In this document: positions 2,800 to 64,000 of the stretch, one piece after another
Layout: each line of letters begins with the position of its first letter
How positions within the stretch are numbered: the stretch's first letter is position 1
Source of the DNA: Heterodontus francisci
Taxonomy: Eukaryota
NCBI RefSeq assembly: GCF_036365525.1
Contig: NC_090385.1
Coordinates: forward strand, 63,434,170-63,498,169
Length of the DNA stretch: 64,000 nt
Direction of reading: 5' to 3'
Position numbers and translations under genes: made by a program
Notes under the pieces: generated by a model
Seen by the model: the letters and a program-made list of their open reading frames with translations, nothing else
Databases searched by the model: none
Told to the model about the DNA's origin: nothing

Positions 2800-3146
2800 G
2801 GGCGGCACAGTGGCGCAGTGGTTAGCACCGCAGCCTCACAGCTCCAGCGACCCGGGTTCAATTCTGGGTACTGCCTGTGTGGAGTTTGCAAGTTCTCCCT
2901 GTGTCTGCGTGGGTTTTCTCCGGGTGCTCCGGTTTCCTCCCACAAGCCAAAAGACTTGCAGGTTGGTAGGTAAATTGGCCATTATAAATTGCCCCTAGTA
3001 TAGGTAGGTGGTAGGGAAATATAGGGACAGGTGGGGATGTGGTAGGAATATGGGATTAGTGTAGGATTAGTATAAATGGGTGGTTGATGGTCGGCACTGA
3101 CTCGGTGGGCCGAAGGGCCTGTTTCAGTGCTGTATCTCTAAACTAA
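2800..3146 (+). mobile_element. HE1-like V-SINE, full length
   Basis: tRNA-like A box (TGGCGCAGTGG) and B box (GGTTCAATT), V-domain core GTGGAGTTTGCA..TTCTCCCTGTGTCTGCGTGGGTT..CTCCGGGTGCTCCGGTTTCCTCCCAC, CR1-derived tail GGGCCGAAGGGCC. Confidence 0.9.
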
Positions 3147-3374
3147 TGTGATAAGGTATCACTGCACCTCAGTTTGCATCATTTGATCATAAGAAGCAGC
3201 TGTCTGCTACAGCTTTTCCATGCTGTAAATGCTATGTAATTCAATGTAATTCACTGCTGGCAAAAGAGAAAACTTTCTATGAATTGAAGAACCTCATTGT
3301 CATAAAAGTCTACCTGTACTTTAACTATACAAGCAGAGACCTGCAGACCATTTGCAGTCAAATTACTATCGTTA

Positions 3375-4671: not shown

Positions 4672-5047
4672 GGTGGCACAGTGGTAATGTGGTAATTTCA
4701 CTGGACTAGTAATCCAGAGCCCAGGCGAATGCCCAGGGACATGGGTTTGAATCCCACTATGGCAGATCGTGAAATTTGAATTCAATTAATAAATCTTGAA
4801 TTAAAGTAGTTTATTGATGACCATGAAACCATTGTCGATTGTTGTAAAAACCCATCTGGTACACTAATGGGCTTTAGGGAGGGAAATCTGTTATCTACAT
4901 GTGATCCCATACTGAGAGCAATGTAGTTGACTCTTAAAATGCCCTCTGAAAAGGCTTAGCAAGCTGCTTAGTTCAAGGGTTTTTAGGGATGGGCAATAAA
5001 TGCTGGCCTAGCCAGCAATGCCCACATCCCACAAATTAATTAAAAAA
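4672..5047 (+). mobile_element. tRNA-headed SINE sharing its 3' tail with the second LINE family; inserted in an old CR1 tail (about 4590-5125)
   Basis: A box GGTGGCACAGTGG, anticodon-like stem CTGGA-CTAGTAA-TCCAG, B box GGTTTGAATCCC, tail AGGGATGGGCAATAAATGCTGGCC...CCCACATCCC as at 20220-20270 and 36900-36960. Confidence 0.85.
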
Positions 5048-14660: not shown

Positions 14661-15730
14661 GAGGAAGGTGTCGTCAATAGTGCAATCAAGCGGCATTTAC
14701 ACAGCAATAACCTGTTCATCAATGCTCAGTGAGGATTCTGCCAAGGCCACTTGGCTCCTGACCACATTGCATTTTTGGTCCAAACATGGACAAAAGAGCT
14801 GAATTCAGGAGGTGAGGTGAAAGTGACTGCCCTTGACATCAAGGCAGAATTTGACCGAGTGTGGCATCAAGGAGCCCTATCAAAATTGAAGTCAATGGGA
14901 ATCTGAGGGAAAACTCTTCACTGGTTGGAGTCATGCATCATACAAAGGAAGGTGGTTGTGGTTGTTGGAGGCCAATCATCTCAGCCCCAAGACATCGCTG
15001 CAGGAGTTCCTCAGGGTAGTGTCCTAGGCCCAGCCATCTTCAGCTGCTTCATCAATGACCTTCCCTCCATCATAAGGTCAAAAGGGGGGATGTTTGCTGA
15101 TGATTGCACAGTATTCAGTACCATTTGTGACTCCTCAGATACTGAAGCAGTTTGTGTCCACATGCAGCAAGACCTGGACAACACTCAGGCTTGGGCTGAT
15201 AAGTGGCAAGTAACATTTGCGCCACACAAGCGTCAGGCAATGACCATCTCTAACAAGAGAGAATCTAATCACTTCCCTTGACGTTTAATGGCAGTCCCCC
15301 ACTACCAACATCCTAGGGGTTACCGTTGACCAGAAACTGAACTGGACCAACCATATAAATACTGTGGCTACAAGAGCAGGTTAGAGACTGGGAATTCTGC
15401 AGCAAGTAACTCATCTCCTGACTCCCTGTTCGCCATCTACAAGTAACAAGTCAGGAGTATGATGGAATACTCTCCACTTGGCTGGATGGGTGCAGCTCCA
15501 ACAACACTCAAAAAGCTTGACACCATCCAGGACAAAGCAACCCGCTTGATTGGCTTCCCATCCACCACCTTAAACATTCACTCCCTCTGCCACCAATGCA
15601 CAGGGGCAGCAGCATGTACCATCTAGAAGATGCACTGCAGCAATTCGCCAAGCCACAAAGAACAAAGAAAATTACAGCACAGGAACAGGCCCTTCGGCCC
15701 TCCAAGCCTACGCCGATCCAAATCCTCTAT

Positions 15731-19632: not shown

Positions 19633-21369
19633 TTTTAATCTTAAGCTTAAACTTAGTTAAATGAAAAAGGAACGAAAAGTTTTTTACCAATCACACGATA
19701 AAAAAAAGAGAAATAGAAAAAGCCTTACCTTATCTACACACCGCCGAGTTCTTTTTTTTTGGTTAGAGGAGGAGGGCGGGTGGGAGACACTACAGGTGTA
19801 GTGTCTCGGGTTCAGAAACGGCCCAAATATATAGGGTTTTACTTACCCAGCAGCCCCCTGGTCTCCGCCGAAAACAAAAGGAAATTAAGTTTACTTTAAA
19901 CTGACCTTCCCAGCTGCTCACTCGCTCGCACTCTTTGCTCCCGAAAAAGCTGCTGTAGTGAAAGCCTCCTTCAACAGCACCTTCCAAACCCACAACCTCT
20001 ACCACCTATAGGGACAAGGCCAGCAGACGCATGGGAACGCCACCACCTGCAAGCTTCCCTCCAAGCCACACACCATCTTTACTTGGACCTATATTGCCAT
20101 TCTTTCAGTATTACTGAGTCAAAATACTGGAACTCCCTCCCTAGCAGCACTGTGGGTGTACCTGCACCAGATGGACTTCAGCGGTTCAAGAAGGCTCACC
20201 AGCACCTTTGCAAGGGCAGTTAGGGATGGGCAACAACTACTGGCCTTGCCAGTGACACCGACATCCCATGAAAGAATATAAAAAAAATTACTTCTTTGAC
20301 CTCACACCCTTAAGTTGCGGGTTGACCACGTCTATAAATGTGCTATCCATGAAGCTCTCGATCTCGCAGATGCGCCGCGGTGCTGCCACCTGCTGCTCAA
20401 ATTCCACTTTGGGTTTTGATTAGTGTTGCGTTCTAATTCTAATTAATTCTAATTCCTCCCCCCATTGCATTATTCTTTGGTGATTATTTTTGTTCACAAT
20501 TGTGAGCTCCTGGCAATGATGTAATATCACAGCATCCTTTCCTGCTGCTGTATCTGCTTCATTATATTAAAGGGGTGATATTGCCTAGCTGAACAAGCCT
20601 AACATGATTGCAGTCTGTAGTTATTTTCAGTAACACTGGCCTAGAAATTGGTCCATGCAGTGCTCGGTTTTCAGGCGCTACTCTGACTTCTAGGGCCCCA
20701 CTATAGGGGTCAGGAGGCGTGCGTCTAATTCCAGACAGAAGTGTGCAGCCTGCTATACTGAGTAAGGACAAACAAAAGGCATCCTTTACCTACACCCCTC
20801 CCCTTACTGAGGGCACATCTAATAGACATTAGACTCTTTATTTGTATATGCAAAGAGGCCAGTGTCTGCTTTTGAGGGCCCCTCGGTAAGATTGCTTTGT
20901 CCTAAGCTGTAACCATGAAAGCAAGTAACATACATGAATATGGAGCCGGGAGGAGCAGGGGTGCGCCGCCTGACCTCACATTAAAGGAACCAATCGCCAT
21001 TGCTCCTAATCTCCATGTTCCTCGTCTCTGTGAAACCCAGACCCACTTATATTGAACCCCCCCCACTCCCTGGATCTCCGGCCCAGTTATTTCTGGCCCC
21101 CCGCCACCCAAATCCCCTGGACCCACTTATCTTGCACTTATGCTAGCAATGGCTAGATTTTCCACTGTGTACACCTGAGTTTCTTCACTATGTTTGATAT
21201 TTCCAGTTTGCTCCCCTGAGCTTTTGCATTGCATTGCAGTGTTGCCTCTTTTCTTTTTTCTTTTGCTCTGGCCTGATGCAGACATGGAGTGGTCGGTCAA
21301 CAGTTAATATTTTCGCACAGTTTGAACCTCCAATCTATAGCTTCCTTGCTAGAAAGATACAAAGACTAG

Positions 21370-34130: not shown

Positions 34131-37100
34131 GGGCAGAATTTTATGTGGACTTCGGGGACAAATGAAGGCTGGGGGGGGGGGGGGGGGGGCATTAAATTGG
34201 GACTGGAGACATCGGACCAGAAGTCTGATATCGTGATGTCCCATCCTGATATTATGAATGGTGGCAAACATGGAGGCGGAGAGCAGACGTCAACGTGGCG
34301 GGCAGGCAGTTAAGGTAGTTAAGAGGCCTTGGACAGCGATTTTATACTTCGTTTCAAATTTTATTAACGGCGCTCAGGATTCGTGGGGCTTCAAAGCCTC
34401 AGCTGGTAAAGGGAGGTGACGTGGAGGTGATGGCTCATTGCTGGCTGCAAAGGAAGGCCATCTGGAGAGGCAGCATCAACTGCCAGGAAGGGTGGAGAAG
34501 GGAAGGCATATCTGAGGAGGGTGGGGGTGCCATATCGTTCTGCATTTCCTTTGATCCTTACTGCCAGCTGTAGGTTGAGCAATAAAAGCTTACCTTTATG
34601 CAGCCCTGTTGTCGCCTTCCTTCCAATGCCAGGTGCGCAGAGCTCAGCTGGCAAGGCTCCAGAGTTGATCCCTCGCCTTGAGCCCCTTGACAGAGGCAGG
34701 GTTGAAATGAAGCACCAAAGTCCATAAATAAGAGTAAAGTGATCTTGTGCAATAGAAACGATCGTTATTATCCCTGATGCCAAATGCTATCCTTTCTATT
34801 TACATTACACATTCACCATGAGTCTCCCATGCTTTGCGGTGCTCTTCTTTATTCTTTTGCGTGTACTCCTACACTGTGCTCCCCCTGCGCTGTCAGCTGA
34901 AACGAAGGCAGGCTGCTGACCTTGCTGTTCCTTGGCTAGGCATGACTTTGGCAGTCATCCTCTGGATGCCTTAGGTCTGAAGGGTCCTGGCATTGTGAGG
35001 GCCTCCTGCACAAAATCAGTGTTACCCTCTATTGTCAGGGATGAAGGAGGATTTGATGTCACTGGCAGAAGGGCAGAGGAACTGCACCAGGACCACCCTG
35101 AGAGGAGGCCCAGCTGTGGGGGGAGGGTGGGGGTGCAGCCGCTCCTCCACCCTTGCAAGGCAGACTTCTGCCTCCCTGCTGACCTGAGAGGTCAGAGGAC
35201 TTGGTGGTGAGTTCAGGTCTCCCGTACCCCTCTCGCCTTGCCACTGCTGCCTTGAGCTCTTGGTCAAGATGAGGGTATGCAGTCTACATGAATATGCTGC
35301 AGACACTGAGTGCTGTGCTGAATGTGGCTCTCCAGAAGTGTCGCCAATCTCTCATTGCAGGACACCATTTGTGCACCAGTCAGAGTCAGTGCAGCACTCG
35401 ACGCCTGGATGGACTCCTCCATTGTCCCTACCTGAGCACACATTGCCTCTGGCATCTCTGCCAGATGTTGCCTGACCCCTCTCTGCAGCTGCAGCATTTC
35501 CTGTGATGCTGGCGACACCAGAGGCTCATCATGAGCCTTGGGTTCAGCATGGGTCTGGCCTCCCACAGTCCTCCAACTCTGAGACCTTGGCTGTCACAGC
35601 CTCCGTCAGCTGCTTGGGCGCATCTGTGATGTGCTGACCAGGTTGTGTGTATACCCACTGATATCCGTGTATTTGCGCTGGCGGAGGGTGCAGGGGTATG
35701 GATCATCTGAGGCTCTGTCCTCCCCCTTGTGCGGTAGGCTCTCCCACAATCTTGGAGGCTCATTGTGGATGTTCTATGTGACCTGCATGAGAGAACAGAG
35801 ACGTTGAATGTTCATGGTCTCTCCCCGACATAGCAAACACCCCTATGTTGGAGGTGACTGTAGGCATTGGATGCCTGATAAACAGCATGGCTCCATCACT
35901 CCCAATGCACCCTTGTGCCCCCATGGTATCCTTATTTAATCTCTTGGGACGATGCCCCTGTCTCTCTGTCCGCAACACATCGTCCATCCTGCGGCCATGG
36001 CAGCTCCATGGTTTCCTCCTCCATTTGGCTCAGGATATGGCGATTTGGCAGTCCACTGCTGATCTTAGCCCGCACTCTGCAATTGTGTGCTATCTTCTCC
36101 TGCAGATGCAAAGATGAATGCTGTTGGTCTCCCATCAGGGACAAGTCCAAGACAGATGCTGGTGGTAGTCAAACTGTTACTGATGGGGGCACACAGATGC
36201 CTCTTGCATGTGGTCCCTTTCCAGGGACTTAGTGAGGGTCTCTATTGACAAAAGGCCACCTTTCAGTGCCATTGAACCATGCCTTAGCCATTTATTTGAA
36301 TGCCCTGAATCTCTGCCCACATCTGGGTGGGTATTCGTTCTCCACCTGACACCTCTTCCTCCTCGGACAAATGCAAGGCCCATGAGCTGAAAGCTTTAAG
36401 ACGCACTCACTTTCGCTGCCCGGATGAGGTCATTGAGCCGCCTACAGCACTGAATCCAGGTCCTTGGTGTGTCCCCGGGTCTGCTGACCTTCTCTGCTAT
36501 CTGCAGCCAAGCTTGCTTGGTCAGACTCCCAACACTCCTCCTCCCCTTTCTAGGGAAGAATATCTCTTTCATTTTCTTTGCAGCCTGTAAGAGAACAGTG
36601 TGGCAGCAGTGTGTACCATCTACAAGATGCACTGTAGCAACATACCAAGGCTCCTTCGACAGCACCTTCCAAACCCACGACTTCTACCACCTAGAAGGAC
36701 AAGGGCAGCAGTTGCATGGGAACGCCACCACCTGCAAGTTCCCCTCCAAGCCACACACCATCCTGACTTGGAACTATATCGCCGTTCCTTCACTGCCGCT
36801 GGGTCAAAATCCTGGAACTCCCTTCCTGACAGCACTGTGGGTGTACCTACCCCACATGGACTGCAGTGGTTCAAGAAGGCAGCTCACCACCACCACCTCA
36901 AGGGCAATTAGGGATGGGAAAAAAATGCTGACCTTGTTAGCGATGCCCACATCCCATGAACGAATATAAAGAGAAAAGAACCTGGAGGCAGGCATCATTA
37001 AGGCGTGGGTCCACCCGGGGTCGTCTTTCTGCCATTGTTCTGCAACTTCTCTCCTCTGAAGAAATCCTTATACCTGGCAGGGAAACATTGATTCTAGGGC

Positions 37101-37924: not shown

Positions 37925-38185
37925 TGTATGGGTCTGGAGTCACATGTAGGCCAGACCAGGTAAGGACGGCAGATTTCCTTCCCTGAAGAATATTGGTGAA
38001 CAAGATGGGTTTTTACGACAATCAATGATAGTTTCATGGCACCATTGCTGAGACTAGCTTTCAATTCCAGATTTTTATTGATTTAATTGAATTTAAATTC
38101 CACCAGCTGCAGTGATGGGATTTGAACACATGTCCCCAGGGCATTAGGCTGGGCCTCTGGATTACTAGTTCAGTGACATTAACAC
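37925..38185 (-). mobile_element. 5' half of tRNA-headed element (same family as 4672..5047)
   Basis: Reverse complement of the head and body of 4672..5047, no tail. Confidence 0.82.
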
Positions 38186-38754
38186 TAGTGAGGAACTAGG
38201 CAAGGGCTGTTCCACTCAGCTGAATGATGGAAAAGAGGCATTGGAGGGAGGATGGTGTGGTCAATGGTGTCAGAGGCTGCAGACAAATTGAGAAGGATGA
38301 GGTGGGATAGTTTACCGTGTTCATAGTCACAGAGGATGTCAGTTGTGGCTTTGATGAGGGCTATTTCGGTGCTGTGACAAGGACAGAAACCTGAGGAGTT
38401 GTAGGAAAGAAAGGCACAGATTTGAGAGGCAGCACACATTCAAGAGCTCTGGCTCTTGAATGGGAGGTTGGTGATTGGATAGTAGATAGAGGGGTCAAGG
38501 GTATGTATTTAGTGGGTGGGTGGACAGATGACTGCAGCTTTAAAGGCGAAATGGACATGCCTGAGGAGAGGGAACTGTTAACAATACTGGCTAATGTAGG
38601 AGCCAGGAAGGGAAGTTGGGTGGTCGGCAGATTGGTGGGAATAGCAATGAGGGAGTAGGAGGTGGGTTTCATGGACAAGATTAAAACACTATATTTAATA
38701 GTAAGTTTGAGCTTGCTGAGTTTAGATTTTTTTATGTTGACTTTTTTGTTGTTG

Positions 38755-44645: not shown

Positions 44646-45777
44646 ACAGTACTCAAGTTGAGGCCGAACCAGTATTTTATAAAGGTTCTTCATAACTTAT
44701 TGTAAACCTCTATTTATAAAGCCCAGGATTCTTTATGCCTTTTTAACCACTTTCTCAACTTGCCCTGCCACCTTCAATGCTTTGTGTAGATAAACCCCCA
44801 GTTCTCTCTGTTCCTGCACCCACTTTAGAATTGTACCCTTTATTTCCTCTCCTCATTCTTCCTACCAAACTGTCACTTCATAGTTCTGTGCCTTAAATTT
44901 CATCTTTTTTTTATTCATTCAGGGATGTGGGCGTCACTGGCTAGGCCAGCATTTATTGCCCATCCCGAATTGTCCTTGAGAAGGTGGTGGTGAGCTGCCT
45001 TCTTGAACCGCTGCAGTCCATTTGGGGTAGGTATACCCACAGTGCTGCCACATGTCTTCCCATTCCACCAGCCTATACTCTATGATTCTATACTCACTAA
45101 GGCATGACACTAGGAGTAATCCGGAGATTACTACCTTTGAGGTCCTGCTTGTCAATCTCCTTCCTAGTTCCTTAAACTCTGCTTCAGGATCTCATCCCTC
45201 TTTCTACCTATGTCATTGGTGCGGATATGGATCAGAACCTCTGCTGTTCATACACCCCCTCAGAGTGCTCTGCAGTAACATCCTTGACCCTGGCACCTGG
45301 GAGACAACATACCATCCCAGAATCATGTCTGCAGCCGCAGAAACCCTGATCTATAGAAGACCCTATTACTATTGCTTTCCCAGGCTCTCAATGTGCGCTC
45401 TCTCTCTGGCTTCCAGAACACACTTTCTGTCTGGGCTCTGACACCTAGGTTGAGATCCACAAAGTCAACGCTGAATGCAAATGGAACTCTAATCTTCTGG
45501 TCTTTATGACTTAATATGCACCTGCTGGTTCTGTTATCTCGAGGTTATGTGGGCAATTCATTGCTTTCTGTTCACACTTATAAATGAATTGCTGTGTACT
45601 GTTATTGAATTTTGCAGGAAATCAATTGCATTAAGTAAGTAGTGAAAATAGTTCTGTGAAAATTGTTCATGATGTTCAAAGGGCGGTTGAGTGATGCAGT
45701 TAATTATAGGGAGAATTTGAATGTGAGCATTGACCACTTGCACCTAACTGTAGTTGTACTCTTGTACATTACAACAG

Positions 45778-51030: not shown

Positions 51031-51667
51031 TTTCCTTCTCAATATGCCTTACAAATCTTTAGGAAGTATCCCATGTCAGCAGTAGTGGCAAAATTGCCAA
51101 TGTTGCAGGCTTGCCCGCAATATCTGGAGTTGGGCCCAAAGATATTAGATTTGTCCTGGATAGATTAGAAAATTTAAAGTATTATCATAAGGTTTTGGTT
51201 GAAGTGATTGCTTGCAGTAAATTTTCACATAAAATTAATAAACTGTTCAAATATGTCTGTCAGCACATGCATTGTATATTTAGCATACCTGTAACTTTGA
51301 GTGTCGTATGCTTGCAATGCATGAACCGAAATTGAACATGTGCTACTGGGTTGGCAGTAGTGTATTTGAACGTGTAATTAATTTCCTGTTCGTAATTTTG
51401 TTTTACGAGCCAATAGTTTATCTCACATGGTAGTTCTCATGCGAAATGAGGATATGCTCTTTGATGAGGAAGTGGATCATTGCAGTATTACAGTAGGGGA
51501 TGGTGGTGGTGTGTTAACTCAGAAGCCCAGGCTAATGCTCGTAGGACACGAGTTCAAATCCCACCATGGCAGCTGGTGGAATTTAAATTCAAGCAATTAA
51601 TAAATCTGAAATTAAAACCCGGTCTCTTTAATGGTGACCGTGAAACTGTCAGATTGTCATAAAACCT

Positions 51668-53760
51668 ATAGAGTCATTTACAACTGCTACGAAAGTGCTT
51701 CCATTTAAAAAATATTTTATTTTTTTGAGGATTTGTGTCAAAACTGAAAAGTTTCCATGGATGTGTATTTAACCAAGTTCACTGAAAGGACACTTGAGAT
51801 GTTGTTTGAAACCAACCTGTGCTGGAAATCATGTGCTTTAAGCTCAACAAACAAGAGAACCTTGGTGACTTGGGGAAGATATTTACAGAGAAACCACGTC
51901 AAGGTTTATGGAGGTCAGGAGGTTGACTTTCTTGTTGGGGTGTGAACAGTTTTGAAGACGGTTGGTGTTTTGCCTGGCAACGAAAAAGAAACCACCCAGC
52001 TCACCTCTTTCTCTACCTCTTTGAAGAAACCCGACAAAGATCCAGTGTGGGAGAGCTAAAATCCCTGGTGCTGCATTTCTTCTGAGAAGCTGGAAAAACC
52101 TGCCAGATTAATTCTCAACGCCGTCTGAAAAGAACTGCTTTAGAAAAGATCTCAGTGACTCGTCTCCGTATACCCGGACACCAGACCAAAAGGAACAACT
52201 GACTTCCTTCCATATGTTATCTTTTTTTCTTCAAGAATTAGCAAATATTTGGCCAGTTTTTTTTTTGTCTTTTTTTGTGACATACCTCTACAGAGAGGTG
52301 TGTGTGTGTAATTTATAAAAGGGAACTTCCATATTTCAATCTGTATGTTAATGATTTGCTTCATTACTGGATAAATCTTGTTTGATAAACTGATAGTTTT
52401 GTTGTTTATTAAAGAAACCGGGTTGGTGTATTTTATTCTGAGATAGAGCATATAATTGACTGAATTGGTAACTGAGTAACCATTTTTAAAATATATGAAA
52501 TGACCTGTGGAGAAGTGGGACCAGAAAAGATAGTGCACTCCTCCCACCTCGGTCGTAACACAGCATAGAAGGAGGCCATTCGGCCCATTGAGTCCATGCA
52601 GGCTCTCTGCGGAGCAGTCCAGTCAGTCCCACTCCGCACCCGATCCCCGTAGCCCTGCAAGTTTACTTCCTTCAAGTGCCCATCCAATTTCCTTCTGAAA
52701 TTATTGATTGTTTCCGCTTCCACCACCCTCATGGGCAGCAAGTTCCAGGTCATTACCACTTCTGCGTTAAAAAGTTCTTCCTCATATTCCCCCCTGCATC
52801 TCTTGCCTAAAACCTTCAATCTGTGTCTCCGAGTCCTTGTACCATTAGTTAATTGGAACAGTTTTTCCCTGTCTAACTTAGCTAAGTCTGTCATAATCTT
52901 GTACACTGCTATCAAATCTTCCGTCAATCTTCTTTGCTCCAAGCTTTTCTAATCTAATCTTGTAACTAAATTCACCCATCCCTGGAACCATCTGATAAAT
53001 CTCCTCTGCACCCTCTCAAGGACCTTTTAAAATCCTTCCTAAAATGGGGCGATCAGAACTGGGCTCAATACTGTAGCTGGGGCCTAACCAGAGCTTTATA
53101 AAGTCTCTGAATAACTTCTCTGCTTTTGTACTCAATGTCTCTATTTATCAAGCCAAAGATCCCATATGCTTTGCTAGCGACTCTCAATTTGTCCTGCCAC
53201 CTTCAAAGATTGATGCACGTGTATCCCCTGGTCCTGACCACTCTTCAGAACTACACCATTAAGTCTATATTGCCTCACCCAATGTATTAAATTCCATCTT
53301 CCACTTGTTTGCCCATTCTGCTAGCCTATCTATGTCTTGTTGCAGGTGGTTCACATCACCCTCACCGTTTGCCACTCCTCCAAGTTTGGTATCAACATTA
53401 AATTTTGAAATTCTACTCTGTATTCCCAGATCCAAGTCACTTATAAATTGCAAATAGGAGCAGTGGTCCTAGCACTGACCCTTGGGGAACAGCACTGTCT
53501 ACCATCCTCCAGTCTGAAAAATCAACAGTTACCACGACTCGCTGTTTTCTGTCCTTAAGACAAATTTTAAATCTAAGCTGACACTGACCCTCCTATTCAA
53601 TGAGGCTCAATTTTGTTCACCAGCCTTTTACGTGGTACTTTATCAAACACTTTCTTAAAATCCATATCGACAGCATCCACTGTATTCCCTTCATCAATCT
53701 TCTATGTTACCTCATCAAAAAATTCAGTTAGACTAATCAAGCATTCAATTAAATTAGTCA
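51668..53760 (-). mobile_element. CR1 3' part, tail interrupted by a solo LTR
   Basis: QRRLTEDLIAVYK; EWANKWKMEFN. Confidence 0.88.
51685..52560 (+). mobile_element. Solo LTR (876 bp)
   Basis: TGCTACGA...TCGTAACA termini; 4-bp flanks CAAC/CAGC; host CR1 tail rejoins across it; ATTAAA at about 52408. Confidence 0.78.
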
Positions 53761-55194
53761 AGCTCTGATTCACTAATGTCATTTAGAGAAGGAAATCTTC
53801 CGTCTTTACCTGGTCTGGGCTCCATGTGACTCCAGACCCATAGCAGTTCACCCTTACATCATCATTGTCAGCTGTCCCCTGATTTGGGGACGTCATATAC
53901 TCAGAGTCTTCATGTGACTGAGCAAGTCGATTTTCGACCTGCAGATCTTTGGGCACAAGGGGGAGGGTGTCCCACGAGGTAGTGGGATCCAGAGTGCAGG
54001 ATTTGCTTCCTTTTCTTTTCTCCTCTGCCGTCAAACTGCCTCATCATTAAGGCGTTGGAACTTGAAGTGCAATGCAGCTTGGTGGACAAGTTGTAACATT
54101 CTGAGCGGGTGGTAGCAAGTTCCTCCCAGCTGTTAAGGTCAATGCAACCATGCTTCAAGGAGAGCTTCAGAGTGTCTTTTAAGTGTTCTCTTTGTCCTTC
54201 CCTGGAATGTTGGTATTTTGAAAGTTGAGAGAACAGGACCTGGCAGGGGAGACGAATTTCAGTCATGCGGACACAGTGGCCAGTCATCGGAGTTGCTTTT
54301 TCAGGAGTTTTGCCTGAATGCTTGTGGATCTGGTTTCAAGAAGCACACTAGCATTTGTTCGATGGTCCTCCCATTGCATTCGGAGGACGCAGAGGTATTG
54401 CTGATGGAACTTCTCTCGTGCTCTTATGTGTCATTGATATACTGTCCAGGTCTTGCTGCAGTATAGGAGCATGGCGATGACAAATGTTTTGTACGCTAAG
54501 ACTTCTGTTGATTTGCGGAGGTCTTTGTCAAACATGTGCTGCCATATTTTGTAGAAGGCTGAATAAGCGCAGCTGATCCAGTATTGGATCTCCTCATCGA
54601 TGGTGGCCTTTTGAGGCTCAACATATTCCAGAGTGTCTCCTTCAACATATATGGGAGATGGAGTATTTGGCTGGCCAGGTGTGGGTTGATAGGAGTTTTC
54701 TTTTGGCAACATTCAAGGACAGGCTGAGTTTCTTGTATGCAGAAGTGAAGAGATCGAGAGTGGCTTGCAAGTCTGATGCAGAGTGGGCAACAACACTGCA
54801 GTCATCTGCAAGCTATAGCTCATGTATATGTGTGGTGGTCAGTTTAGTTTTGGCACAAAGACGACTGAGATCAAAGAGCTTTCCATCTAATGTCCTTTAA
54901 TACTGACACCAAAAGGCAGTTGATTTTTGATGAGGTGAATAGCCACCGTTCGGTAGATTATGAATAGTATGAGGGTTATCACACAGTCTTGCCTGACCCC
55001 AGCGCGGCTATTGAAGCCGTGTGTTTCAGAACTCCCACTAAAGACAGTTGCAGTCATGTCGCCATGAAGCAATTCAGGATTGAGATGAAGTTTCTTGGAC
55101 ATCCAAATCATTGGAGCACAACCCACAAAGCCTCGCGATTTACTGAGTTAGATGTTTCAGTCAGGTCAATGAATGCAATGAAGAGTTCCTGATA

Positions 55195-56702
55195 CAGAAG
55201 CAGGAAATGCTGGATATACTCGGCAGATCGGGCAGCATCTGTGGAGAGAGAAACAGAGTTTACGTTTCAGGTCGTTAACTTGCATCAGAATTTGCAAAAG
55301 TTAGAAATGTATAGCTTTTGAGCAAGGGGAAGGGGGTGGAGAAAAACAAAAGGTCTTTAATAGGGTGGAAGGCAGGAGAGATTAAATGACAAAAGGTTCA
55401 ATGGTACAAAGCCAAGGATTCAACGGATCATTCTCCACCATTTCCACCACCAACAAATACATCTTCCCTGCCCCTCCCCTTTCAGCATTCCGAAGCGAAC
55501 ATTCCCTCCACTACGTCCTGGTCCACTCCTCAGTCACCTCTAATACCTCCCCCTTTTCCTGTGGAACCTTTCCATGCAAGCGAAGGAGACGCAATACTTG
55601 GCCTTTAATCTCCTCCCTTCTCCCTGTCCAGGGCTCCAAACTCTCCTTGCAGGTGAAACACCCATTTATTGTACTTCTTTCAGTTTAGTATACTGTATTC
55701 ACTACTCACAACGTGGTCTCCTCTACATTAGATTAGAGATACAGCACTGAAACAGGTCCTTCGGCCCACCGAGTCTGTGCCGAACATCAACCACCCATTT
55801 ATACTAATCCTACACTAATTCCATATTCCTACCAAACATCCCCACCTGTCCCTATATTTCCCTACCACCTACCTATACTAGTGACAATTTATAATGGCCA
55901 ATTTACCTATCAACCTGCAAGTCTTTTTGGCTTGTGGGAGGAAACCGGAGCACCCGGAGAAAACCCACGCAGACACAGGGAGAACTTGCAAACTCCACAC
56001 AGGCAGTACCCGGAATCGAACCCGGGTCCACATTGGGGAGACTAAACGCATACTGGGTGACTGCTTTGCGGAACACCTCCGTTCAGTCCGCAAGTGCAAC
56101 CCCAAGCTTCCTGTCACTTGTCATTTCAATTATCCATCTTGCTCCCACTCTGACCATTCTATCCTTGACCTGTTAGAATGTTCCAATGAAGCTCAACGTA
56201 AGCTCGAGGAACAGTACCTCATCTTTTGACTGGTCACTTTACAGCCTTCTGGACTCAACATTGAGTTCAATAATTTTTTAGATCCTAACCTCTGCCCCCA
56301 TATATTTCCTTTCCTCATGTTTTCTTTGCTGGTTTGTTCCCCAACCCCCCACCCTTTTCTTTCTTAATCCCATTACTTTGGCTGCTATTCTGCCATTTAC
56401 ACCTCATCCAGATACATCTTTTGTTTATTTACTTGGCTTTGTACCGTGAAACCTTTTGTCATTTAATCTCTCCCGCCCTCCACCCTATTACATACCTTCC
56501 CTTTTGTTGTGCTTCACCAGCTCCCCACTTTCACTTGCTCAAAACCTATTTCATTTCTAACTTTTGCCAGTTCTGATGGAAGGTCTCAGATGTGAAAAGT
56601 TAACTCTGTTTCTCTTTTCATAGATGCTGCCTAACCTGCTGAATATTTTCAGTATTTTCGTTTTTGTTTCAGATTTCTGGCAACCACAGTATTTTGCTTC
56701 TG
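55195..56702 (+). mobile_element. Penelope-like element with inverted terminal copy and 16-bp TSD
   Basis: TGAAGAGTTCCTGATA at 55179-55194 and 56703-56718; ends CAGAAGCA / TGCTTCTG; GLLYI-GETKRILGDCFAEH GIY-YIG remnant. Confidence 0.9.
55730..56029 (-). mobile_element. HE1-like V-SINE, 5'-truncated, inserted in the YIG motif
   Basis: Near-identical reverse complement of 2850-3140; ACATT duplication at 55725-55729 and 56030-56034. Confidence 0.92.
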
Positions 56703-57362
56703 TGAAGAGTTCCTGATATTGTTCTCAACATTTTTCTTGGATTTGTCTGGCAACATGGTTGACTCTTAACTGCTCTCTGAGATGGCTTAGCAAGCCACTC
56801 AGTTGTACCAAACTGCTACAGAAAAATTGAAAAGGAGTGAAACTGGATGGACCACATGGCATTGTCCTAGGCAGCAGAAATGACGATGGCACACACTGCC
56901 CAGTTGACCCTGCAAAGTCCTCCTTACTATCATCTTGGGGCTTGTACTAAAATTAGGAGAGCTGTCCCACAGACTAGTCAATCAACATACTGACATAGTC
57001 ATACTCACCAAATCAATAAAAACAGATAGCAAGAGTTTCTACAGGTATTTAAAAAGAAAAAGAATAAGTAAAGTGAGTGTTGGTCCTCTGGAGAGTTAGA
57101 ATGGGGAGTTAATAGTAGATAATAAGGAAATGGCGGATGAAATAAACAAATATTTTGCTTCTGTTCTCACTATTGAGGATACAAAAAACATCCCAGTAAT
57201 AGCTGTGAATCAGGAGGTGGAAGGAAGAGAGGAACTTGGTGAAATTACACCAGAAAAAGTGGTACTGACCAAACTGATGGAGCTGTGGGCTGACAAGTGC
57301 CTGGGTCCTGATGGGCTTCATTCCAGGGTTTTAAAAGAGGTGGCTAATGAGGTAGTAGATGA

Positions 57363-60300
57363 CTCTAGCACTAGGGGCCTTTTTTTTTTTAGATTAGAGA
57401 TACAGCACTGAAACAGGCCCTTCGGCCCACCGAGTCTGTGCCGAACATCAACCACCCATTTATACTAATCCTACATTAATCCCATATTCCTACCAAACAT
57501 CCCCACCTGTCCCTATATTTCCCTACCACCTACCTATACTAGTGACAATTTATAATGGCCAATTTTACCCATCAACCTGCAAGTCTTTTGGCTTGTGGGA
57601 GGAAACCGGAGCACCCGGAGAAAACCCACGCAGACACAGGGAGAACTTGCAAACTCCACACAGGCAGTACCTGGAATCGAACCTGGGTCCCTGGAGCTGT
57701 GAGGCTGCAGTGCTAACCACTGCGCCACTCACTGGGCCATATCGTTAATTATAACAATTTAGTAAGGATTTAATAAGTATTTATTTTTATTTATTAAATA
57801 GTGCTAGAAATGTCAGAGGGGTGAAGTACTTCACCTGCGAGATGTGGGAGGTCTGTGACGCTTCCAGCGTTCTGGACAACTACATCTGCAGGAAATGTAC
57901 CCAGTTGCAGCTCCTCACAGACCGCATGGATCGGTTGGAGCAGCAACTGGATTCACTTAGGAGCATGCAGGTGGCAGAAAGTGTCATAGACAGGAGTTTT
58001 AGAGAAGTGGTTACACCCAAGGTGCAGGCAGATAGATGGATGACTGCTAGAAGGGGCAGGCAGTCAGTGCAGGAATCCCCTGTTGGCTATCCCCCTCTCT
58101 AACAAGTATACCATTTTGGATACAGTTGGGGGGGGATGGCCTATCAGGGGAAAACAGCAGCAGCCAGAGCAGTGGCACCACGGCTGGCACTGTTGTTCAG
58201 CAGGGAGGGACAAAGCGCAGAAGAGCAATAGTTATAGGGGACTCTATAGTCAGGGGCACAGATAGGCGCTTCTGTGGACGTGAAAGAGACTTCAGGATGG
58301 TATGTTGCCTCCCTGGTGCCAGGGTCAAGGATGTCTCTGAACTGACAGGGGGCATTCTGAAGGGGGAGGGTGAACAGCCAGAGGTTGTGGTATACATCGG
58401 TACCAATGACATAGGCAGGAAGAGTGATGAGGTCCTGCAGGGGTAGTTCAGGGAGTTAGGTAGAAAGTTAAAAGACAGGACCTCTAGGGTTCTAATCTCG
58501 GGATTACTCCCTGTGCCACGTGCCAGTGAGGCTAGAAATAGGAAGATAGTGCAGCTAAACACGTGGCTGAACAGCTGGTGTAGAAGGGAGGGTTTCAGAT
58601 ATCTGGACCATTGGGATCTCTTCAGGGACAGATGGGACCTGTACAAGAAGGACGGGTTGCATCTAAACTGGAGGGGCACAAATATCCTGGCTGTGAGGTT
58701 TGCTAGCGTCACTTGGGAGGGTTTAAACTTGTGTGGCAGGGGGGTGGGGACCAGAGCAGTAGGACAGCAAGTGAAATAAATGAGGGGGAACTAGTAAATA
58801 AGGCCAGTAAGACTGAGAGGAAGAGCAGGTAGGGAGATGTTGCGGAGCACAGCGGGACTGGTGGTCTGAAGTGCATTTGTTTCAATGTGAGAAGTATAAC
58901 AGGTAAGGCAGATGAACTTAGAGCTTGGATTAGTACTTGAAACTATGATGTTGGTATTACAGAGACTTGGTTGAGGGAAGGACAGGATTGGCAGCTAAAT
59001 GTTCCAGGATTTAGAAGCTTCAGGCGGGAAAGAGGGGGATGGAAAAGGGGTGGGGGAGTTGCATTACTGGCTAAGGATAATATCACAACTGTACTGCGGG
59101 AGGACACCTCGGAGGGGTCATGCAGCGAGGCAATGTGGGTGGAGCTCAGGAATAGGAAAGGTGCAGTCACGATGTTGGGTATTTACTACAGGCCTCCCAA
59201 CAGCCAGCGGGAGGTGGAGGAGCAGATATGTAGACAGATTTTGGAAAGATGTAAAGGTAACAGGGTTGTAGTGGTGGGTGATTTTAACTTCCCCTATATT
59301 GACTGGGACTCACTTAGTGCAAGGGGCTTCGATGGGGCAGAATTTGTAAGGAACATCCAGGAGGGCTTCTTGAAACAATACGTAGATAGTCCAACTAGGG
59401 ATGGGGCTGTACTGGACCTGGTATTGGGGAATGAGCCCGGCCAGGTGGTCGAAGTTTCAGTAGGGGAGCATTTCGGGAACAGTGACCATAATTCCATAAG
59501 TTTTAAGGTACTTGTGGATAAGGATAAGAGTAGTCCTCGGGTGAAGGTGCTAAATTGGGGGAAGGCTAATTATAACAATATTAGGCAGGAACTGAAGAAT
59601 TTAGATTGGGGGCTGCTATTTGAGGGTAAATCAACATCTGACATGTGGGAGTCTTTCAAACATCAGTTGATTAGAATCCAGGACCAGCATGTTCCTGTGA
59701 GGAAGAAGGATAAGTTTGGCGAATTTCGGGAACCTTGGATAACGCGGGATATTGTGAGCCTTGTCAAAAAGAAAAAGGAAGCATTCGTAAGGGCTGGAAG
59801 GCTAGGAACAGACGAATCCCTTGAGGAATATAAAGACAGTAGGAAGGAACTTAAGCAAGGAGTCAGGAGGGATAAAAGGGGTTATGAGAACTCATTGGCA
59901 AACAGGATTAAGGAAAATCCCAAGGCTATTTATACGTATATAAAGAGCAAGAGGGTAACCAGGGAAAGGGTTGGCCCACTCAAGGACAGAGGAGGGAATC
60001 TATGTGTGGAGCCAGAGGAAATGGGCAAGGTACTAAATGAGTACTTTGCATCAGAATTCACCAAGGAGAAGGACTTGGTGGATGATGAGCCTAGGGAAGG
60101 GAGTGTAGTTAGTCTCAGTCATCTCATTATCAAAAAGGAGGAGGTGTTGGGTGTCTTGCAAAGCATTAAGGTAGATTATGCCCCAGGGCCTGATGGGATC
60201 GACCCCAGAATACTGAGGGAGGCAAGGGAAGAAATTGCTGCGGCCTTGACAGAAATCTTTGCATCCTCGTTGGCTACAGGTGAGGTTCCAGAGGACTGGG

Positions 60301-61751
60301 GAATAGCCAATGTTGTGCCTTTGTTTAAGAAGGGTAGCAAGGATAATCCAGGAAATTATAGGCCGGTGAGCCTTACGTCAGTGGTAGGGAAATTATTAGA
60401 GAGGATTCTTCGGGACAGGATTTACTCCCATTTGGAAACAAATGGACTTATTAGCAAGAGGCAGCATGGTTTTATGAAGGGGAGGGCGTGTCTCAGTAAT
60501 TTGATTGCGTTTTTTGAGGAAGTGACGAAGATGATTGATGAAGGAAGGGCAGTGGATGTTATCTATATGGACTTCAGTAAAGCCTTTGACACGGTCCCTC
60601 ATGGCAGACTGGTTAAAAAAAGTTGAAGTCACACGGGATCAGAGGTGAGCTGGCAAGATGGATACCGAACTAGCTCGGTCATCGAAGACAGAGGGTATCA
60701 GTGGAAGGGTGCTTTTCTGAATGGAGGGATGTGACTAGTGGTGTTCCGCAGGGATCAGTGCTGGGACCTTTGCTGTTTGTAGTATATATAAATGATTTGG
60801 AGGAAAATGTAGCTGGTCTGATTAGTAAGTTTGCGGACGACACAAAGGTTGGTGGAGTTGCGGATAGTGATGAGGATTGTCAGAGGATACAGCAGGATAT
60901 AGATCGGTTGGAGACTTGGGCGGAGAAATGGCAGATGGAGTTTAATCCGGTCAAATGTGAGGTAATGCATTTTGGAAGGTCTAATGCAGGTGGGAAATAT
61001 ACAGTAAATGGCAGAACCCTTAGGAGTATTGACAGGATGAGAGATCTGGGCGTACAGGTCCACAGGTCACTGAAAGTGGCAACGCAGGTGGATAAGGTAG
61101 TCAAGAAGGCATACGACATGCTTGCCTTCATCGGTCGGGGCATAGAGTTTAAAAATAGGCAAGTCATGCTGCAGCTGTACAGAACTTTAGTTAGGCAACA
61201 CTTAGAATATTGCGTGCAATTCTGATCGCCACACTACCAGAAGGACGTGGAGGCTTTGGAGAGGGTACAGAAGAGGTTTACCAGGATGTTGCCTGGTCTG
61301 GAGGGCATTAGCTTTGAGGAAAGGTTGGATAAACTCAGATTGTTTTCACTGGAATGACGGAGGTGGAGGGGCGACATGATAGAGGTTTACAAAGTTATAA
61401 GCAGCATGGACAGTGTGGATAGTCAGAAGCTTTTTCCCAGGGTGGAAGAGTCAGTTACTAGGGGACATCGGTTTAAGGTGAGAGGGGCAAAGTTTAGAGG
61501 GGATGTGCGAGGCAAGTTCTTTACACAGAGGGTGGTGAGTGCCTGGAACATGTTGCCGGGGGAGGTGGTGGAAGCAGGTACCATAGCGACGTTTAAGCGA
61601 CATCTTGACAAATACATGAATAGGATGGGAATAGAGGAATATGGACCCCGGAAGTGCAGAAGGTTTTAGTTTCGGCAGGCATCAAGATCGGCGCAGGCTT
61701 GGAGGGCCGAATGGCCTGTTCCTGTGCTTTACTGTTCTTTGTTCTTTGTTC
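57363..61751 (+). mobile_element. Near full-length CR1 related to 15655..19961, several stops and frameshifts
   Basis: ORF1 pieces (CEMWE..CRKC, IGDSIV, IGTNDI, DGLHL), ORF2 58971..60626 and following pieces, (TTCTTTG)n tail; TSD TAGATGA at 57356-57362 and 61752-61758. Confidence 0.94.
57391..57729 (-). mobile_element. HE1-like V-SINE in the CR1 5' UTR
   Basis: Near-identical reverse complement of 2810-3140. Confidence 0.92.
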
Positions 61752-64000
61752 TAGATGAGTTGGTTTTAATTTTTCAAAATTCGCTGGATTCTGGAAAGGT
61801 TCCATCAGACTGGAAAATAGCAAATATAACCCCTCTATTCAAGAAGTGGGGGAGGTAGAAAACAGGTAACTATAGGCCAGTTAGCTTGATTTCTGTCGTG
61901 GGGAAGGTGTTAGAATCGTTCGTAAAGAAGGTTATAGCTGGGCACTTAGAAAAATTCGACGAAATAAGGAATAGTCAGCATGGCTTTGTGAAAGGGAAAT
62001 TGTGTTTAACCAATTTATTGGAGTTCTTTGAAGGAGTGACATGTGCCGTGGATAAAGGGGAGCCTATTGACGTTCTGTACTTGGATTTCCAGAAGTCATT
62101 TGACAAGGTGCCACATAAAAAGTTATTGCATAAAGTAGGAGCTCATGGTGTTGTGGGTAACCTATTAGCATGCATTGAAGATTGGATGGCTAGCTGGCAG
62201 AAAACAGAGAGTATGCATAAATGGATCCTTCTCTGATTGGCAAGATGTGACGAGTGGAGTCCCGCAGGGGTCTGGGCCGGGGCCTCAACTTTTTGCAATT
62301 TATATCAATGACTTAGATGAGGGGAGCGATGGCATGGTAGCTAAATTTGCAAATGATACAAAGATAGGTAGGAAGGTATGTTATGAAGAGGACATAAGGT
62401 TGCAGACTGATGTAGATCGGTTGAGTGAGTGGGCAAAAATCTGGCAGATGGAGTATAATGTGGGAAAATGTGAAGTTGTTCACTTTGGCAGGAAGAATAA
62501 AAAAGAGTATTGCGAAAATGGAGAACAACTGCAGAACTCAGGTGCAGAGGGATCTAGGTATTCTAGTGCATGAGTCACAAAAGGTTAGTGTGCAGGTACA
62601 GCAAATAATAAAGAAGGCTAATGGAATGCTATCCTTTATTACGAGAGGAATTAAAAATAAAAGTAAGAATGTTATGCTTCAGTTGTGCAAGCATTGGTGA
62701 GACCACATCTCGAAAACTATGCAGTTTTGGTCTCCTTATTTAAGAAAGGATGTGAATGCGTTGAAGGCAGTTCAGAGGAGGTTTACTGGATTGATACTTG
62801 GAATGAGCAGGTTGTCTTGTGAGGAAAGGCTGGACAGACTATTTGTTTTCACTGGAGTTTAGAAGAGTGAGGGGAGACTTGATTGAAGTATATAAGATCC
62901 TGAATGGGTCTTGAAAAGTGGATGTGGAAACGATGTTTCCTCTTGTGGGGGAGTCCAGAACTAGGGGGCACTGTTTTAAAATTAGGAGTTGCCATTTTAG
63001 GACAGAGATGAGGAGAAATTTTTTCTCTTGGTATTGTGCAACTTTGGAACACTCTGCCTCAGAAGGTGGTGGAGGCGAGGTCATTGAATAATTTTAGGGT
63101 GTGGGTAGATAGATTCTTGTTAGACAAGGGAATTAAAGGTTATCGGGGGTAGATAGGATTGTGGAATTCGAGACACAAAAGATCAGCCATGATCTTATTG
63201 AATGGCAGAGCAGGCTAGAGGGGCCAAATGGACTACTTCTGCTCCTAATCCTTATGTCCGTGTGTATGTTCGAATGTATACTGACAGCTAATGTCCCAGA
63301 TTTCTCCATCACCATCCCTGGGTACGTCCTGTTCCACCGGCAATACAGACCCACCAGAGATGGCGGCACCATGGTATACAGTTGGGAGGGAGTTTCCCTA
63401 GGAGTTCTCAAAATTCACTCCGGATGCTATGAAGTCTCATGGCAGCAGGTCAAATATGGGCAAGGAAATCTCCTGCTGATTGCCACCTATCGCCCTGCCT
63501 CAACTGATGAATTAGTACCCCTCCATGTTGAATACCAAGTAGAAGAAGCACTGAGGGTAACAAGGGCACAGAATGTACTCTGGGTGAGGGATTTCAATGC
63601 CCATCACCTAGATTGGTGCAGTAGCATCACTACTGACTGAGTTCTGAAGGACATATCTGTCAGACGGGACCTGCTGCAGGTTGCGAGAGAAGCAACAAGA
63701 GGGGAAAAATGTATTTGACGTCACCCTTACGAATCTACCTGTCGCTGATGCATCTGTCCATGACAGTATTGGTAGGAGTGACCACCACACAATCTTAGTG
63801 GGGACCAAGTCCTGTGTTCGCACAGAGGATACCATCCATCTTGCTGTGTGGCACTACCACCGTGCTAAATGGGATAGAACAGATCTAGCAGCTCAAAACA
63901 GGACATCCGCGAGGCGTTGTGGGCCATCAGCATCAGCAGAATTGTATTCAACCACAATCTAACCTCATGGCTGGCATATCCCCCACTCTACCATTACCTT

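Follow-up and report, generated by a model that had tools for sequence, protein, structure and literature searches.

An elasmobranch Zenon LINE with a tRNA-Ser-like head and probable Pol III transcription, and its likely internally deleted SINE

An interrupted Zenon copy and its relatives in the window

Four plus-strand pieces at the end of the window, the 64,000-nt stretch of Heterodontus francisci DNA that was analysed, form one dead copy of a Zenon LINE, a family of about 3.3 kb. The copy was interrupted three times. Its pieces are collinear with a natural full-length copy, L053, to which their element coordinates refer. The 5′ piece (51495..51667) contains the decayed tRNA-derived head and the start of the body (element 39-162 at 51515-51646, 76.5%), with a B box at about 51551-51561 and an eroded A box. 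It is followed by a body piece (53761..53845; element 187-268 at 53764-53845, 87.8%), then by a piece comprising the end of the body, a basic N-terminal extension and the start of the APE domain (56749..57015; element 266-531 at 56750-57015, 83.5%). The last piece (63272..64000) holds the remaining APE domain and a linker; in the extended window, it matches element 535-2916 from 63281 to 65624 and thus runs past the window end into RT. Its Pfam match to Exo_endo_phos_2 has an E-value of 0.003, below the cut-off.

The first nested insertion (51668..53760) includes a minus-strand CR1 3′ end and a putative LTR part. The second (53846..56748) consists of an RTE-like piece and a GIY-YIG-like piece that contains another SINE, and the third (57016..63271, plus strand) of CR1 elements, one of which has an ORF1 of the esterase type. 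These frames were read by eye, and the CR1, RTE-like and GIY-YIG-like labels are provisional. The sequence-only reading, which had removed nested CR1 and RTE insertions to recover the head and body of one LINE, agrees with this map.

A short SINE lies at 4672..5047 (plus strand), made of element 8-320 and the last ~80 nt of the LINE (3221-3295); the element match starts at 4679, and a tRNA-like fold spans 4674-4765. A head and body fragment is found at 37927..38187 (minus strand, element 16-265). Three further copies are 5′-truncated. The RT part at 14663..15652 (plus, element 1968-2972) resumes beyond a CR1 insertion with its 3′ end and tail at 19962..20287 (plus, element 2970-3298). The other two are a 3′ end with tail at 36595..36975 (plus, element 2918-3298) and a tail at 44905..45047 (minus, element 3153-3296).

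Architecture and selection in the family

Counts of exact 20-mers, with reversed controls at 0, gave at least 12,014 head-to-endonuclease junctions and 53,901 LINE 3′ ends in the genome. A 267-nt junction query was covered nearly fully in all 40 scored matches. Among 29 other junction loci, 28 run on into the APE piece and 21 still have the head. The join first noticed in this window is thus family-wide and not specific to the locus, which rules out a chance insertion of a LINE into a SINE. The connection of the APE piece to the RT and tail pieces, previously a supposition, was established by the extended loci, 16 of 20 of which reach the tail shared with the SINE, and by the window copy, which reaches RT.

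The element consists of a tRNA-Ser-like head with A and B boxes, a body of ~220 nt, a single APE and RT frame, and a stem-loop/poly(A) tail. In one natural copy, a frame of 993 codons without a stop encodes APE and RT only, providing the single intact ORF that was looked for; as had been proposed, full-length copies carry no ORF1. Since the junction is family-wide and full-length copies are devoid of ORF1, the sequence-only reading of a Pol III-headed single-ORF LINE with a SINE derivative is supported.

Non-CpG variants common to at least 4 of 50 copies have a dN/dS of 0.21, and private variants one of 0.98. The APE and RT frame evolved under purifying selection. Variants of the leader and of the ORF co-segregate in 33 copies (Mantel r 0.58, none of 2000 permutations as high); head and ORF are linked family-wide and have been inherited together. 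Of 30 young copies, 21 have their 5′ end at one of the first 10 element positions. Flanking repeats of at least 7 nt were found in 2 of 30, one being a GA repeat, and repeats of at least 4 nt in 4 of 15, indicating that target-site duplications are absent or very short. The RT is 25-31% identical to the CR1 frames of the window and 31-39% to its best relatives.

Matched by sequence, the family is elasmobranch Zenon, a CR1-Zenon LINE already known from the Stuart 2026 supplement: a 13-mer matches at five places in the PMC13343379 supplement, and the first ~400 nt were compared by eye. In the same comparison, the head opens seven published consensuses from five elasmobranch species, whereas the Zenon starts of hagfish and coelacanth are unlike it. 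The headed LINE is present in sharks, dogfish and rays. CarCar_, RhiTyp_, ScyCan_, HypSab_ and SquAca_Zenon (PMC13343379) resemble the present element in length (~3.3 kb), a near-identical first 400 nt, the absence of ORF1 and a poly(A) tail. According to the Zenon passages of PMC13343379, lack of ORF1 is universal in Zenon; its absence here is therefore not new. Those passages do not mention the head, T-avoidance, the missing AUG or a partner SINE, and the main text has no match for tRNA, Pol III or polymerase III. Judged by title and abstract start, none of the papers listed by literature searches describes a Pol III-headed Zenon; an earlier mention, for instance in Repbase or Dfam entry notes, may exist.

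A tRNA-like head and a dearth of T-runs

By definition, a SINE is a non-coding Pol III unit and a LINE a coding Pol II unit. The Zenon family combines a promoter and a T-run profile of the SINE type with a selected ORF of the LINE type. ARAGORN and alignment to host tRNA-Ser both identify the SINE head as tRNA-like with A and B boxes, as noticed in the initial reading; the Rfam tRNA model scores it at 25.8 bits, under the gathering threshold of 29.

Internal TTTT terminators, for which a check had been suggested, are missing from the sense strand of the column majorities (0 versus 15 antisense), and 30 copies of ~2.95 kb each contain a single run. Zero TTTT has a P of 0.081 under synonymous shuffle, 0.013 under a third-base null and 0.009 under base shuffle, and is alone a weak signal under the first. 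Sense TTT occurs 4 times versus 12.8 expected from synonymous shuffles (31%), with none of 5000 as low. Five CR1 stretches of the window contain 2.9-6.0 TTTT per kb and an RTE control stretch 0.77 per kb over 1.3 kb; copies gain T-runs with age and these controls are older, and older Zenon copies have 0.22 per kb. Of 80 metagenome relatives, 57 have a frame of at least 450 codons; each of these contains TTTT (2-49) and none has an upstream A/B-box pair. These relatives are distant and mostly richer in T (21-37% versus 20%). Four have TTT below their own shuffles (p<0.01), yet at 75-84% of expectation versus 31% here. Relaxed ARAGORN matches in these relatives, mostly inside frames or antisense, are likely noise.

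Together, the tRNA-type promoter, the lack of TTTT and the lack of a normal start codon point to a protein-coding RNA likely made by Pol III. Alternatively, Pol II could make the LINE RNA from the body or by host read-through, the head being a relic or having another job, such as an RNA fold or processing site, and T-poverty reflecting composition or RT preference. This would suit the general view of LINEs as Pol II transcripts (PMC5786205), the P of 0.08 above, a head that differs more between subfamilies than the body block does (8-10 versus 4.3 informative sites per 100 nt) and the AATAAA found in 43 of 50 LINE tails. It is nevertheless unlikely given intact A and B boxes at a fixed 5′ end in five species, a TTT deficit restricted to the sense strand, and the lack of an AUG for a capped scanning ribosome. 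X-to-T changes creating TTTT (0 of 64 shared versus 3 of 529 private variants) go in the same direction, in numbers too small for significance. Judged by sequence features, transcription of the LINE by Pol III is probable. Zenon-family sequence was also found in assembled contigs of four sequencing runs from four organisms, with the SINE joint in one; such contigs cannot show strand, start, cap or expression.

A putative non-AUG start signal

If Pol III transcription is real, translation has to be independent of cap and AUG. In the element sequence examined, no in-frame AUG precedes the APE domain, and the first in-frame Met beyond the leader TAG is codon 222. A hairpin with a 7-nt loop at 56777..56817 (plus strand) contains ATG-GCN-TAG (ATG at 56782, TAG at 56788). 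The GCT at 56815-56817 is in frame and complementary to the loop. The hairpin and GCT form a putative start signal, and a tRNA-mimicking non-AUG start may be envisaged speculatively. Pseudoknot I of the dicistrovirus IGR IRES (PMC3517527, bioRxiv 2024.04.17.590008) is possibly alike, with an anticodon-like 7-nt loop that pairs a downstream in-frame codon of a non-AUG frame. The conserved block of ~140 nt in Zenon is similar in length to that IRES; the linker is 12 nt versus 6-10. An IGR-like IRES in LINEs was raised earlier (PMC3894237). In 14 copies, no compensatory change was found for the loop-GCU pseudoknot, 95% of cells being able to pair. The folding energy of the leader is unremarkable (z 0.59). 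No Rfam IRES family matched at E≤10, which a divergent fold may escape, and no PKII/PKIII or L1.1 loop motif of the IGR IRES was identified upstream.

The ATG could also serve in a division of labour, where the head and T-avoidance belong to the Pol III RNA that is copied, and capped Pol II read-through RNA supplies the protein by read-through of AUG-GCC-UAG or by reinitiation. In this genome the AUG shares the reading frame of the ORF and is flanked by a purine at -3 and G at +4, the TAG-to-GCT spacing is 27 nt in 55 of 55 scored LINE rows, and CAG or GAG replaces the stop in 10 of 30 young copies. However, CTAG is mutation-prone element-wide (T rate 0.073 versus 0.015) and the CAG/GAG copies were picked with a query having no stop there; hypermutability and query bias are also more likely than an AUG-start subfamily arising from TAG to CAG. 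By eye, and with consensus errors possible, the spacer of the whale-shark consensus (PMC13343379 supplement) is 26 nt long and keeps the GCT, but not the AUG, in frame, and a second in-frame TAA occurs in the dogfish consensus. That the ORF was under purifying selection implies, moreover, that the copied RNA was mostly the translated RNA. We regard this division as distinctly improbable. As a candidate subfamily mark, a second in-frame stop (TAA) was counted, giving 598 TAA versus 122 TAG; the 20 copies viewed are spread over several subfamilies.

The preferred reading is a ~3.3 kb single-ORF LINE with an integral tRNA-Ser-derived head, for which end-to-end Pol III transcription and non-AUG translation are both likely. 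TFIIIC would bind the A and B boxes of the LINE head, and Pol III would transcribe all 3.3 kb, encountering no terminator before it stops in the tail or the flank. Ribosomes may be recruited to this presumably uncapped RNA via the conserved ~140-nt block ahead of the ORF, with translation beginning near the GCU codon. The LINE protein would then bind the 3′ stem-loop, and the RNA would be inserted by target-primed reverse transcription, which is established for CR1-group LINEs. Few precedents are known for an uncapped coding Pol III RNA of 3.3 kb. A more specific version, a Pol III mRNA of 3.3 kb translated without cap or AUG by its own tRNA-mimicking pseudoknot, so that deletion of the ORF leaves a ready-made SINE, is tentative and on balance doubtful. 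Were it true, a LINE could give rise to a SINE directly, and the conserved SINE body would have a function.

If Pol III transcription holds, a natural long Pol III mRNA has been maintained across sharks, dogfish and rays. This bears on whether Pol III mRNAs can be translated efficiently, whether LINEs use IGR-like IRESs and whether LINE 5′ UTRs are the source of SINE bodies. Tool builders may also take an interest in a compact RT unit that carries its own promoter.

Origin of the SINE

In the SINE, element 1-320 is fused directly to 3221-3298, a junction counted 5,052 times by exact 20-mers (reversed controls 0); of 30 loci selected by this junction, 29 have 1-320 immediately followed by 3221. 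The skip from the body to a tail found on RT-bearing LINE pieces was thus correctly recognized from the window alone. The corresponding deletion point is 56804, within the hairpin region. The SINE contains nothing besides 5′ and 3′ parts of the LINE, and its tail begins within the last ORF codons. Its head shares states with an older LINE copy (L039) and has additional specific ones. As initially suggested, the SINE is likely an internally deleted form of the LINE, which would keep promoter and tail and be moved in trans by the same LINE protein.

The reverse order, with the SINE first and its head and body captured by the LINE through template switch, is rather improbable. In its favour, the head must ultimately come from a tRNA or an older SINE, and younger LINE copies fall inside the SINE cluster of a midpoint-rooted, poorly resolved leader tree. 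Opposed to this are the purely LINE-derived composition and shared head states just described, other deletion junctions, different from that of the SINE, in copies L054, L086, L100, L106 and L199, the spread of the headed LINE over sharks, dogfish and rays, and the repeated spawning of deletion derivatives by Zenon (PMC6740152).

With a tRNA-derived A/B-box head, short length, multiple copies and a 3′ end common to the partner LINE, the SINE is structurally of the SINE2 type. MetaSINE was set aside: the 66-bp Meta consensus (PMC7245038 supplement) is by eye unlike the body after the head, and a motif search of the searchable files of that supplement gave no match. By their published description, CmiSINE and SacSINE1 are L2-tailed CORE/Deu SINEs. 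In the T+ SINEs B2, Dip and Ves (PMC8466645), AATAAA precedes a T-run of variable length and then an A-tail, an arrangement that some tails here may share. Runs of T4 or longer occur in 10 of 50 LINE tails and 5 of 30 SINE tails, most having a single T, and T-runs of T+ SINEs are reported to grow after insertion (PMC8466645); this likeness is therefore weak evidence.

Kojima 2018 (PMC5786205) mentions in one sentence a tRNA-like sequence within the autonomous LINE RTE-1_DAn and relatives, as here, but that sentence gives neither its position nor a Pol III claim. The same source proposes that LINE 5′ UTRs gave rise to SINE bodies, Bov-tA being an example of a bipartite LINE-derived SINE. Its model has the head join after the deletion and holds that 'SINEs cannot encode a protein', whereas in Zenon the coding parent itself bears the head. 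In Lepidoptera, the Persaeus SIDE similarly consists of Zenon 5′ and 3′ ends joined by internal deletion, with several origins (PMC6740152). As described there, Persaeus has no tRNA homology or Pol III promoter, whereas the present SINE is a structurally typical tRNA SINE because its parent LINE carries the head.

The head-APE junction in the genome

The 267-nt junction piece was compared with the 6.0 Gb assembly G000, in which the window belongs to C15. All 40 scored matches span almost the whole query, at 83–88%. A junction created by accident at a single locus is ruled out, as in 28 of 29 other loci the junction is followed by the APE piece, and the head persists in 21 of the 29. Exact 20-mers, which give lower bounds, numbered at least 12,014 for the head-ORF junction (variants, 598 and 122), at least 53,901 for the LINE 3′ end and at least 5,052 for the SINE junction, with zero for each reversed control. 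The head-APE element is real, family-wide and unusual. The sequence-only reading gave the SINE and the LINE the same tail, which was reached in 16 of the 20 loci extended to 8 kb.

By its sequence, the headed LINE family corresponds to the already known elasmobranch Zenon. The supplementary data of Stuart et al. 2026 (PMC13343379) include consensuses of 2.9–3.3 kb from five species that start with the same head. That paper gives absence of ORF1 and a poly(A) tail as general Zenon traits; its main text makes no mention of tRNA or Pol III. A whale-shark preprint merely names CR1-Zenon-like LINEs. The literature searched, outside Repbase, Dfam and most subscription papers, describes no Zenon with a Pol III head. 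On this known LINE family the SINE-type promoter appears to be undescribed; it comes together with strand-specific terminator avoidance and the lack of an AUG start.

Anatomy of the element and of the window copy

Positions refer to L053, a natural full-length copy of 3,302 nt. The tRNA-like head (1 to about 90) contains an A box (11–21) and a B box (near 76–86), assigned against the general box consensus. ARAGORN calls it tRNA-Thr with an AGT anticodon, although its alignment to a host tRNA-Ser(AGA) gene scores above all 1000 shuffles, in line with the proposed tRNA-Ser resemblance. A tandem array in this genome (G000:C34:12636758-12762175), with at least 50 tRNA-Ser(AGA)-motif matches spaced by about 2.15 kb, is likely a tRNA gene cluster repeat. 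The body extends to about 320 and is followed by the ORF, in which a basic N-terminal extension precedes the APE and RT domains, then by a stem-loop tail of about 70 nt and poly(A). Domain searches of the full-length element gave no match for RNase H or ORF1, the latter as predicted. A stop-free frame of 993 codons was found in one copy; the other 45 best protein matches have one to six stops each.

Self-comparison and pairwise alignments bear out the collinearity of window segments 51495–51667, 53761–53845 and 56749–56804 with the SINE at 4672–4973; from 56805 on, the copy passes into an endonuclease frame, which is picked up again at 63272. The window copy covers element positions 39–162, 187–268, 266–531 and 535–2916. 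Its fourth piece extends past the end of the window into RT, so that the APE-RT join, previously inferred, is demonstrated in this copy itself. In the adjoining stretch (L031:1625-1660), the copy skips from 2916 to what is apparently a degraded remnant of the tail, after which comes a (CATAGAA)n repeat end. About 16 kb beyond the end of the window (L032:6507-10000), there is another full-length copy that has its head. Three young minus-strand copies of another SINE, presumably of V-SINE/HE1 type and 95–97% alike, are nested in inserts (55725–56029, 57389–57729, also 2809–3149). In the CR1 at 57755–60626, an esterase-type ORF1 can be recognised, and ORF2 has an open stretch of 561 codons.

Origin of the SINE

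In 29 of 30 junction-selected loci, the SINE consists of element 1–320 joined directly to 3221–3298, with no sequence of its own beyond LINE parts. The deletion removes the ORF and the GCT described below, and retains promoter and tail. Other deletion junctions were seen as single examples. Head states are common to the SINE and an older LINE copy; the SINE further has derived states that are peculiar to it. The leader tree is poorly resolved and too weak to prove the direction, but the proposed internal deletion of the LINE is the simpler reading and likely the correct one. Persaeus, a deletion derivative of lepidopteran Zenon, is described as headless (PMC6740152), unlike the elasmobranch SINE.

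T-runs and polymerase III

The check for internal terminators found no TTTT on the sense strand of the column majorities, versus 15 on the antisense, and a single run among 30 copies together. Under three different nulls, the zero on its own has P = 0.081, 0.013 and 0.009. In the ORF, TTT occurs four times versus 12.8 in synonymous shuffles, none of 5000 being as low. Window controls have 2.9–6.0 TTTT runs per kb (CR1 stretches) and 0.77 (RTE stretch). Among 80 metagenome relatives, each of the 57 with frames of at least 450 codons (23 were dropped) contains 2–49 TTTT, and an upstream A/B-box pair is absent from them all. In one distant relative, a relaxed ARAGORN tRNA-Gln call (L115:959-1047), which may be noise, ends precisely where the frame starts. 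Family-typical T4+ runs are confined to the sequence immediately preceding the A-tail, in 10 of 50 tails, and lie 3′ of AATAAA, a motif present in 43 of 50, which is the layout of T+ SINEs; T-runs of this tail type can also lengthen after insertion (PMC8466645). Terminator avoidance is strand-specific, and elasmobranch Zenon is probably transcribed by Pol III.

A candidate translation start

The ORF apparently lacks an AUG start. ATG-GCC-TAG stands at 298–306, and after it no in-frame Met occurs until codon 222, beyond most of the APE domain. The TAG sits inside a 7-nt hairpin loop, whose central AGC is complementary to an in-frame GCT 27 nt downstream; this candidate pairing resembles pseudoknot I of the dicistrovirus IGR IRES. 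The GCT belongs to a GCTA retained while its flanks differ among subfamilies and species, and the frame is preserved in five of six length changes downstream of it. By eye, the whale-shark consensus has the AUG shifted out of frame with GCT still in frame, and the dogfish consensus a TAA between AUG and GCT. Since the dogfish consensuses also lose the frame after GCT, errors in these consensuses are likely. An IRES-like start is not established, because a 3–4 nt complement may arise by chance, no compensatory changes were seen for the pairing and an Rfam search gave no IRES match. Pol III transcription combined with tRNA-mimic initiation is, jointly, a doubtful proposition.

Age and selection

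The 30 best copies diverge by about 2.5% from the column majorities, and the family has therefore been active fairly recently. As dN/dS is 0.21 for variants common to at least 4 of 50 copies versus 0.98 for private variants, the protein was selected for in source elements, and inserted copies undergo neutral decay. Variants of the leader segregate together with those of the ORF (Mantel r 0.58), so head and ORF are inherited together. At the 14 CTAG sites of the family alignment, T and A mutate about 4–5 times faster than other T/A in the same copies.
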